A stretch of 64,000 bases of DNA from Eledone cirrhosa. Its lineage: Eukaryota. A model generated the notes under the pieces. The model searched no databases. It saw only the letters and a list, made by a program, of their open reading frames with translations, and was not told where the DNA came from. The stretch is taken from positions 5,518,001 to 5,582,000 of the forward strand of contig OZ024756.1 in assembly GCA_964016885.1 (NCBI GenBank), written 5' to 3'. The position numbers and the translations under genes were made by a program. Positions 13,895 through 14,126 of this stretch are shown piece after piece (positions within the stretch are counted from its first letter, which is position 1; every line of letters starts with the position of its first letter).

Positions 13895-14126
13895 TCAAGT
13901 AAGTATGTTTTGAAACAGTGAGCGAGTTTGAAATTAGAAAATATATAGCTTTCACCGTATTTTTAACTAAAGGAATGTTAGCTTGATAACGGGGTTTAGA
14001 ACCCTCAGATAAAAATGGAAAAATATGAGTATTGACGTACATGGGAGTCGAACCCACATCTGTGGTTATCGCGACCACTGTGCTACCATTACACCAACAC
14101 ATCACCAACACATCATATTTTCTAAT
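13895..14126 (-). mobile_element. tRNA-headed, TA-inserted element with a short 5' inversion (family T)
   Basis: Contains a tRNA cloverleaf, then T-runs and a structured tail. The 5' attagaaaatat is an inverted copy of an internal 3' segment. Relatives lie at 15860-16140 and 38380-38640. Confidence 0.7.
14033..14103 (-). ncRNA. tRNA-like cloverleaf inside family T (not a functional tRNA gene)
   Basis: Acceptor GATGTGT/GTACGTC (GU-rich), D arm GTG-TAATGGTAG-CAC, anticodon arm GTGGT-CGCGATA-ACCAC, T arm GTGGG-TTCGACT-CCCAT. The anticodon loop is non-canonical. Confidence 0.7.

Follow-up and report, generated by a model that had tools for sequence, protein, structure and literature searches.

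Partial tandems are one mark of Penelope-like elements (PLEs), together with a tail on one side only, a 5'-truncated copy in inverted orientation and insertion into (TA)n (Craig et al., PMC8557442), and a PLE protein has been reported to cut and extend both strands, with starts at two internal sites of the RNA between which the tail lies (Frangieh et al., PMC11167929). Animal non-LTR retrozymes, which are also covered in a preprint (bioRxiv 10.64898/2026.07.22.740005), are described as non-coding tandem monomers of 170-400 nt that occur as anything from monomers to large arrays and are proposed to be PLE derivatives (PMC7229834). The Schistosoma elements Sm-alpha and Sj-alpha are described as tandem, tRNA-Gln-derived units with a proposed Pol III promoter and an active hammerhead (PMC2770079, PMC6765202). 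As for tRNA-like folds in non-tRNA RNAs, m1A has been reported at their T-loop position, including a site at the T-loop of the MALAT1 tRNA-like element (PMC8336963).

Against this background we studied a family of short repeats, family T, in the window, that is, the whole 64,000-nucleotide stretch of Eledone cirrhosa DNA analysed here. The initial annotation had reported three related copies, and we found them where it had placed them: copy 1 is 85.5% identical to copy 2 over 145 nt and 81% identical to copy 3 over 74 nt. A covariance model of the family, searched at E<1e-6, matched at these three copies only in the 64-kb window, which was also the range covered by the covariance-model search for additional subfamilies. 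The TA flanks, inverted 5' pieces and one-sided tails that had been described were all present in the sequence of the three copies.

Unit positions are numbered here from the first base of the cloverleaf, which puts canonical A58 at position 56. Copy 1 belongs to subfamily T1, and its main arm (13895-14104, minus strand; unit positions -1 to 207) is 96-98% identical to its best genome matches, and a natural tandem has a period of 259. It contains a tRNA-like cloverleaf of 71 nt (14033-14103, minus strand) that scores 44.3 bits against the Rfam tRNA model (RF00005, E 3.6e-6) and is also called by ARAGORN; its D-arm resembles that of host tRNA-Gln and its anticodon loop is non-canonical. Within the cloverleaf lie an A-box-like segment at positions 8-18 (14086-14096, minus strand) and the B box and T-loop (14043-14053, minus strand) with A58 at 14048, where the arm-end counts place a pile of family 5' ends at positions 55-66. 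The trailer (14011-14032, minus strand) carries a T5 run (14019-14023) and is predicted by folding to pair with a purine-rich leader in full units. The one-sided tail (13895-13932, minus strand) lies between two preferred 3' ends, which the same counts put at about positions 157-176 and 203-236. Beyond the main arm, a 10-nt re-copy of tRNA positions 1-10 (14105-14114, minus strand) is followed by an inverted arm of 12 nt only (14115-14126, plus strand), which ends at the short 3' site (position 169). Both 5' ends of copy 1 are at -1/+1, and the copy is flanked by its (TA)n target on the left (13868-13894) and on the right from 14127.

Copy 2 (T2) consists of an arm with the long 3' end (15841-15979, minus strand), 5'-truncated near position 96 in the alignment, an inverted stretch of 11 nt from the anticodon arm, located at the junction (15980-15990, minus strand), and an arm with the short 3' end that holds the anticodon loop, T-arm and trailer (15991-16139, plus strand) and has 97-99% matches elsewhere. 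Copy 3, of the older subfamily T3, has an arm with the short 3' end that starts at about position 20 (38381-38520, minus strand) and an arm with the long 3' end (38516-38662, plus strand); both of these, and the second arm of copy 2, matched the family model. A complete or partial cloverleaf with A and B boxes had been assigned to all three copies. It is complete in copy 1, the only one with an A box; copies 2 and 3 are 5'-truncated, beginning in the anticodon arm and near position 20, and lack it, and the B box of copy 3 (loop TTCGTGT) is without A58. The T5 run was found directly behind the cloverleaf at the copies, as described, and the same run is the 3' strand of the predicted leader/trailer helix. 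The anticodon loops CGCGATA, CTGGATA and CATGATA were also found, but as marks of subfamilies T1, T2 and T3, not as variation between sister copies. A canonical tRNA anticodon loop has U33 and a purine at 37; these loops have T37 throughout and T33 in T2 only, and are not of the functional tRNA-gene type.

Elsewhere in the window, a broken LINE ORF2 at 59431-61699 gives endonuclease (PF03372) and RT (PF00078) matches, and palindromic hammerhead-bearing ends of PLEs or retrozymes lie at 13400-13722, 38325, 38809, 39100, 49547-49564 and 10802-10996. In two such hammerhead families the 5' ends seem, in small samples, to be clustered just upstream of the CUGA core and not at the cut site.

The genome searched comprises 3.0 Gb. 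A 3' 17-mer common to T1 and T2 had 4,907 exact matches in it and the reversed control had 0, so the family is not a product of chance. A D-arm 17-mer had 1,494 exact matches, and two T3-oriented motifs had 45 and 50. At about 1.4 matches per insertion, the count on the forward strand leads us to an estimate of roughly 3,000 dispersed insertions of T1/T2 type. With best genome matches of 96-99%, T1 and T2 are young subfamilies; those of T3 are at 77-86%, and it is older. A strand excess of the 17-mer matches led us to a head-to-tail T2 satellite of ~276 kb on C28:19440600-19716500, with 290-bp units ~95% identical to each other and higher-order spacings. All of the 15 stretches sampled from it, covering ~146 of the 276 kb, consisted of T2 units, and if uninterrupted the array would hold ~950 of them. 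Its first unit follows TA and begins with tRNA position 8, and its other end abuts a coding sequence that is presumably Helitron-like. We considered the array as a master source and rejected it: a private 21-mer had 0 forward and 376 reverse matches, the first 100 of which were all inside the array, and since the private variant is absent from the forward strand the array looks like a dead-end satellite; dispersed offspring of it were not observed. Two further observations concern T-like sequences. At C28:105809827-105811827 there is a minisatellite of at least 8 units of ~92 bp that correspond to the T3 tRNA segment alone (positions -3 to 80), and older, more diverged T-like 3' regions occur at three further loci, probably as additional subfamilies.

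Next, we examined the structure of the unit. T units are non-coding and arranged head to tail with a period of 259-290 bp (in natural tandems, 259 in T1 and 283-290 in T2), dispersed tandems reaching about 4-6 units. Each unit is laid out as a spacer of ~30 nt, a purine-rich leader, the cloverleaf, the T5 trailer and an AT-rich 3' region of ~120-140 nt. Leader and trailer are predicted by folding to lengthen the acceptor stem by ~19 bp, with hairpin z-scores of -4.8 for the full T1 hairpin, -1.1 for T2 and -3.4 and -3.6 for T3. T5 stands behind the tRNA in all subfamilies, and more T4/T5 runs lie downstream in T1 and T3. The acceptor and T helix of the cloverleaf are present in the family, the acceptor stem of T2 being shortened to 5 pairs; A58 is present in 67 of 69 loops of T1/T2 and in 0 of 17 T3 loops.

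Among a partial sample of host tRNAs, the closest tRNA-like sequence was tRNA-Gln. T3 is identical to it at 38 of 72 positions, and 20 of 21 stem pairs hold, 10 via changes on both sides; in the segment 8-25 the identity to tRNA-Gln is 17 of 18. The kept pairs would speak for selection on the fold only if tRNA-Gln is the true ancestor. The test of stem covariation that the initial annotation had suggested, run within the family, returned four two-sided pairs and was not significant, as 110 of 500 shuffles scored as high. A double change in the D-stem occurs in 136 of 489 array units, with 3 and 3 single intermediates, in an array where stem-breaking changes are also common; among dispersed copies of T1 type the same double change was seen once, compared with 7 and 5 single changes. 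The compensated double change of the array was also found in a local duplication of a T1-type copy at C1:131458500-131466500, where one unit carries a single D-stem change and another the compensated double change. A phage origin of the T tRNA was discarded after 0 matches to one pattern in viral contigs. As regards tRNAs elsewhere in the genome, ~29 tRNA-Gln-type genes are clustered at C1:168211720-168275588, some with a shortened loop and an ARAGORN call of tRNA-Pyl (CTA). A second, unrelated tRNA capture is found in family V, a dispersed family of ~1.7 kb with fixed ends in TA and a TC start (e.g. C5:99222941-99223013); its tRNA lies 300 bp inside (53-72 bits, variable anticodon), and its end is an inverted copy of an internal segment.

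For the architecture of the insertions we used the first 100 of the 4,907 17-mer matches, taken as an unbiased sample, which yielded 73 insertions. Head-to-head inversion was seen in 42 of them (58%), and 37 of these 42 combine one short and one long end, the short mostly at 157-178 and the long at 203-236. TA stands at both outer ends of 36 of the 42 inverted insertions and at the 3' end of 28 of the 31 single arms. The tail is 40-60 nt, somewhat above the published 30-40, and we saw no A-rich tail on T insertions, whose ends abut the target TA. Four hallmarks of PLE-mobilised non-autonomous elements (partial tandems, inverted copy, one-sided tail and (TA)n target) are found in T, and this architecture supports well the earlier proposal of a SINE-like parasite of Penelope machinery. 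The contrary outcome that had been named, with most copies lacking inversions and carrying LINE tails, was not what the 42 inverted insertions out of 73 showed.

An ordinary tRNA-derived SINE moved by a LINE, its inversions and TA flanks being accidental in a TA-rich genome, would account for the tRNA-derived segment with A and B boxes (present in T1/T2, A58 being absent in T3) and agree with the LINE pieces in the window. It is contradicted, however, by the proportion of inverted insertions, the two fixed 3' ends and the partial tandems, and we regard it as very improbable. The ends of T are not of SINE type either. We followed 94 arms in upstream walks from the D-arm motif (first matches among the 1,494, together with the earlier insertion sample), and 65 of them reached beyond -22 and did not start at the tRNA head; because they run so far, the templates of these 65 arms did not begin at their own promoter. 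The 3' side is not of SINE type either, with the terminator T5 right behind the tRNA and neither an A-rich nor a LINE-type tail.

T lacks an RT and GIY-YIG ORF and, with units of 259-290 bp, is not an autonomous PLE. The initial annotation had proposed a search for longer T copies joined to a PLE ORF; the PLE ORF pieces near T proved to be separate insertions. The genome does hold an intact RT and GIY-YIG family with 775-aa frames, four copies of which are 97-99% identical, and the 3' repeat of this family has a hammerhead-like core and no sequence in common with T. The family has been recently active (e.g. C2:119710800-119715800) and shows a cysteine-rich linker and TA ends. The option that T is a PLE terminal repeat gained no support: in one intact PLE family, T was absent from the ends of all 19 loci, and the single T3 match among these loci is a separate insertion. 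No autonomous element sharing T sequence was found in a search that followed one PLE family in depth, at 19 loci. The T unit could still be the terminal repeat of an unsampled autonomous, hammerhead-less PLE of Naiad type, in keeping with the report that Naiads are without hammerheads and target (TA)n (PMC8557442). Yet in the arms inspected, the sequence before the tRNA belongs to the preceding unit, to TA, to an inverted arm or to unrelated flank, and together with the count of 0 in 19 this makes such an origin improbable.

We also searched T for a ribozyme. The motifs CTGANGA and CTGANNA are absent from both strands of the T1, T2 and T3 tandems, and at E<=10 Rfam gave no ribozyme match to T, returning tRNA or noise; the motif search carries the weight, because Rfam also missed the hammerhead of another family, family U. 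Hammerhead-like cores are frequent in other repeats of the window (16 motif matches). Family U itself is a young tandem unit of ~470 bp with PLE-type inversions and 1,643 candidates at first look; the stem II of its type I hammerhead has an insertion of ~45 nt, and Rfam misses it. A descent of T from family U, with the tRNA set in stem II, had been suggested by eye and by a weak profile match (E 1.3). It was dropped, the pairwise scores being above neither shuffles (z 0.1-1.3) nor unrelated controls. We hold with high confidence that family T is Penelope-dependent, non-autonomous and hammerhead-less.

The 5' ends of T arms are not evenly spread. Among arms reaching position 66, stops at 55-66 were seen in 56 of 77 of T1/T2 type and in 3 of 51 of T3 (p=6e-15); with one arm per locus, the counts were 37 of 54 for the subfamilies with A58 and 2 of 37 for the A58-less one (p=4e-10). 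By group, such stops make up 30/43 in T1, 17/24 in T2 and 9/10 in older A58-type arms, and because the last stop as they do, age alone is not the cause of the pile. Stop rates at 9-54 and 67-100 show no difference between the two groups. Of 110 arms, 31 have their 5' end in the peak at 61-63 and 9 in a shoulder at 55-60, and exact head-to-head junctions at a CATG palindrome number 520 genome-wide. T3 has the same CATG and an acceptor and T helix that is no weaker (-11.3 and -6.1 vs -7.1 and -4.9 kcal/mol); since it has both of these but no A58, microhomology and secondary structure do not explain the pile. In three contig runs of one sample, 14 of the 15 joints listed, out of 150, link positions 56-72 head to head; this sample is possibly the assembly's own, and the joints were not counted as evidence.

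In tRNA, m1A at A58 blocks reverse transcription. Judging from the sequence pattern, the T-arm pile would probably be due to such a block at m1A58, followed by trimming to the nearest microhomology; trimming must be assumed because the peak at 61-63 lies 4-6 nt 3' of the stop expected at 57. Against this reading, read-through copies show no substitution excess at A58 (1 of 119, in a sample biased to young copies). Moreover, T3 has three differing positions in its T-loop, and it may have been copied by a different RT.

A second property of the pile came from the 94 walks. A stop at the second T-loop occurred in 1 of 10 cases, compared with 56 of 77 at the first encounter (p=2e-4), which points either to single-unit marked RNAs with a minority of long unmarked templates or to circular read-through templates. 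These counts also bear on a different origin of the pile, namely RNA ends left by a T-loop nuclease (tRF-3-like), or a block by a protein or tertiary structure that needs T54-A58 and not the methyl group. Both would show the same T-loop dependence and agree with the lack of misincorporation at A58; a nuclease cutting independently in a linear tandem, however, should give ~70% second stops and not 1 in 10, unless there are two RNA classes. We judge this origin rather unlikely and retain the m1A58 block.

Further upstream, about 10 of the 94 walks end at -2 to +3, a count that omits one +2 row produced by a deletion artefact; seven of these ends are at -1. Another 8 walks end at -3 to -11. The pile at -1/+1 has p = 0.001, 0.013 and 0.12 at a background of 0.7, 1.0 and 1.5% per base, respectively, and another pile of 5' ends, of similar height, lies at -39 to -49. 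Among T3 arms, 13 of 26 end at -3 to +8, at least two of these being reference-edge artefacts. The initial annotation had raised processing by RNase P or RNase Z; for RNase P the ends at -2 to +3 (p 0.001-0.12) are suggestive, and RNase Z found no support. Read from +1 to -1, the unit is predicted by folding to close its ends with a 19-bp helix, in which the 3' end pairs with the trailer beside the acceptor stem (z -2.3), the arrangement that a ligatable RNase P product would have. Within one insertion, units differ about as much as random pairs (2.5-3.5 vs 3.2-3.3 per ~105 nt) and share few rare variants; private variants are not decisive between a circle and a linear tandem.

These data can be read as a tRNA fold that replaces the hammerhead, with RNase P cutting the tandems, a host ligase closing the circle and rolling-circle reverse transcription following. 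Besides the 5' ends near +1 and the end-closing helix, what would fit is one blunt head-to-head join without an element palindrome, the -1 and +1 ends of copy 1 in the window, the all-or-none passage of successive T-loops, the retention of all four stems despite 47% divergence from tRNA-Gln and the lack, by inspection, of recurrent unit-specific differences among independent tandems. Nevertheless, the significance of the +1 pile depends on the background and a similar pile stands at -39 to -49; in hammerhead families beside T loci, small samples of 11, 13, 6 and 8 arms gave no accumulation of 5' ends at the cleavage sites of these families; the T2 acceptor stem has only 5 pairs; two RNA classes account for the all-or-none passage without circles; and uncut RNA is reported as the main PLE substrate in vitro (PMC11167929). 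We consider this scheme doubtful. The same low standing applies to its fullest form, a retrozyme in which the tRNA would replace the ribozyme, RNase P would release the units, the nick between the two unit ends, kept in place by the leader/trailer helix, would be ligated to give circles, a Penelope RT would copy them and an m1A58 brake would be recorded in thousands of insertions.

The explanation we lean towards, if by a small step, is that T is copied in trans by an active PLE RT/endonuclease and that its RNA is handled by the host as a pre-tRNA. The tRNA cassette (5' flank, A and B boxes, cloverleaf and T5) would likely act as a Pol III promoter with some read-through of T5, and most transcripts would likely carry m1A58, halting reverse transcription. 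The PLE endonuclease would cut both strands of a (TA)n target, each end priming a cDNA at one of the two internal start sites, and the two cDNAs would then join where the closest microhomology lies, at the CATG palindrome or at TA. RNase P may trim some templates at the 5' end of the tRNA, and on a minority that are longer and unmarked, reverse transcription would run through several units, regenerating tandems and the upstream flank. Whether the main role of the tRNA is that of a Pol III promoter cassette is an evenly balanced question in our judgement; RNase P processing, with or without circles, is a tentative second choice, and both roles can be true at once. Awkward for Pol III read-through are the T5 run behind every tRNA and the T4/T5 runs downstream in T1 and T3. 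A further point against the explanation is that T3 spread without a canonical B box.

As the main role, that of a passenger seems unlikely to us. The corresponding model, in which the templates are Pol II read-through or intron RNAs that contain both PLE start sites and the tRNA does nothing but impair copying, draws on the report that the PLE RT initiates at internal sites and does not require a defined end of the RNA (PMC11167929), on the majority of arms being without tRNA and on the stem-breaking changes fixed in the satellite array. However, ~70% of arms lose the tRNA per pass and yet the cloverleaf is kept in all three subfamilies, and a recurrent tRNA-less tandem unit was not seen in 71 loci; we think this model improbable and keep to copying in trans of an RNA handled as a pre-tRNA.

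A Penelope-dependent element at thousands of copies that has a tRNA fold and no hammerhead bears on what the PLE hammerhead is for. With an A58-less subfamily as its natural control, the A58-dependent pile would record in the genome how an RNA modification blocks retrotransposition, and it makes testable the idea that tRNA-modifying enzymes restrain tRNA-derived mobile elements. If the model of RNase P and circles were true, it would describe a ribozyme-free way to retrozyme-like circles. On the practical side, the ~1,500 D-arm-bearing units can inflate tRNA-Ser gene counts in this genome.

The initial annotation knew of no description of this combination, which is too strong a statement: Sm-alpha, as published, is a tandem tRNA-Gln Pol III element with a hammerhead (PMC2770079, PMC6765202), and because of this close precedent the combination is only partly new. 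A hammerhead-less, tRNA-bearing PLE parasite or an A58-linked truncation pile was not found in searches of the openly accessible literature. It is for these two features, the absent hammerhead and the truncation pile tied to A58, that we found no earlier description. The family itself may stand unlabelled in a repeat library, for instance among the 893 unclassified, recently active SINE families mentioned in PMC13282606.

Set against the published description of Sm-alpha, not its sequence, T is alike in its short tandem units and, if its likeness to tRNA-Gln reflects descent, in a tRNA-Gln-derived segment; a further likeness would be the Pol III promoter proposed there, with an upstream unit transcribing the next. 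Sm-alpha, as described, has a hammerhead and none was detected in T; unlike Sm-alpha in that description, T has a full cloverleaf on an extended helix, T5 behind it, the PLE tail and inversion and the T-arm pile. Retrozymes share with T the tandem monomers of 170-400 nt, the layout and the range from monomers to large arrays, but the accounts cited make a type I hammerhead in every unit their defining feature, and its lack places T outside the class. MRC1 (a non-autonomous Chlamys) and Naiad resemble T in having no canonical hammerhead, a head-to-tail arrangement, a tail, an inverted copy and microsatellite targets; they differ in that the passages cited describe no tRNA-derived part for them (PMC8557442), and in that their 3' sequence is generally common to them and an autonomous family, whereas no such relation came up for T in the one PLE family followed. 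Helenus TRIMs also have a tRNA-derived sequence in the terminal repeat of a non-autonomous, non-SINE retroelement, but by their description they depend on LTR machinery, with PBS, PPT and a TSD of 4-5 bp, and have kept the boxes and lost the fold (PMC10886601). T keeps the fold, and it is not TRIM- or Helenus-like: its ends are not fixed, the extent of truncation varies, and there are inversions and flanking TA. Finally, mascRNA-type elements are tRNA mimics inside a longer RNA, at the ends of single-copy lncRNAs. They share with T the mimic within a longer RNA and the T-loop mark, which in T would be a predicted one; T is mobile and the mascRNA type is not.
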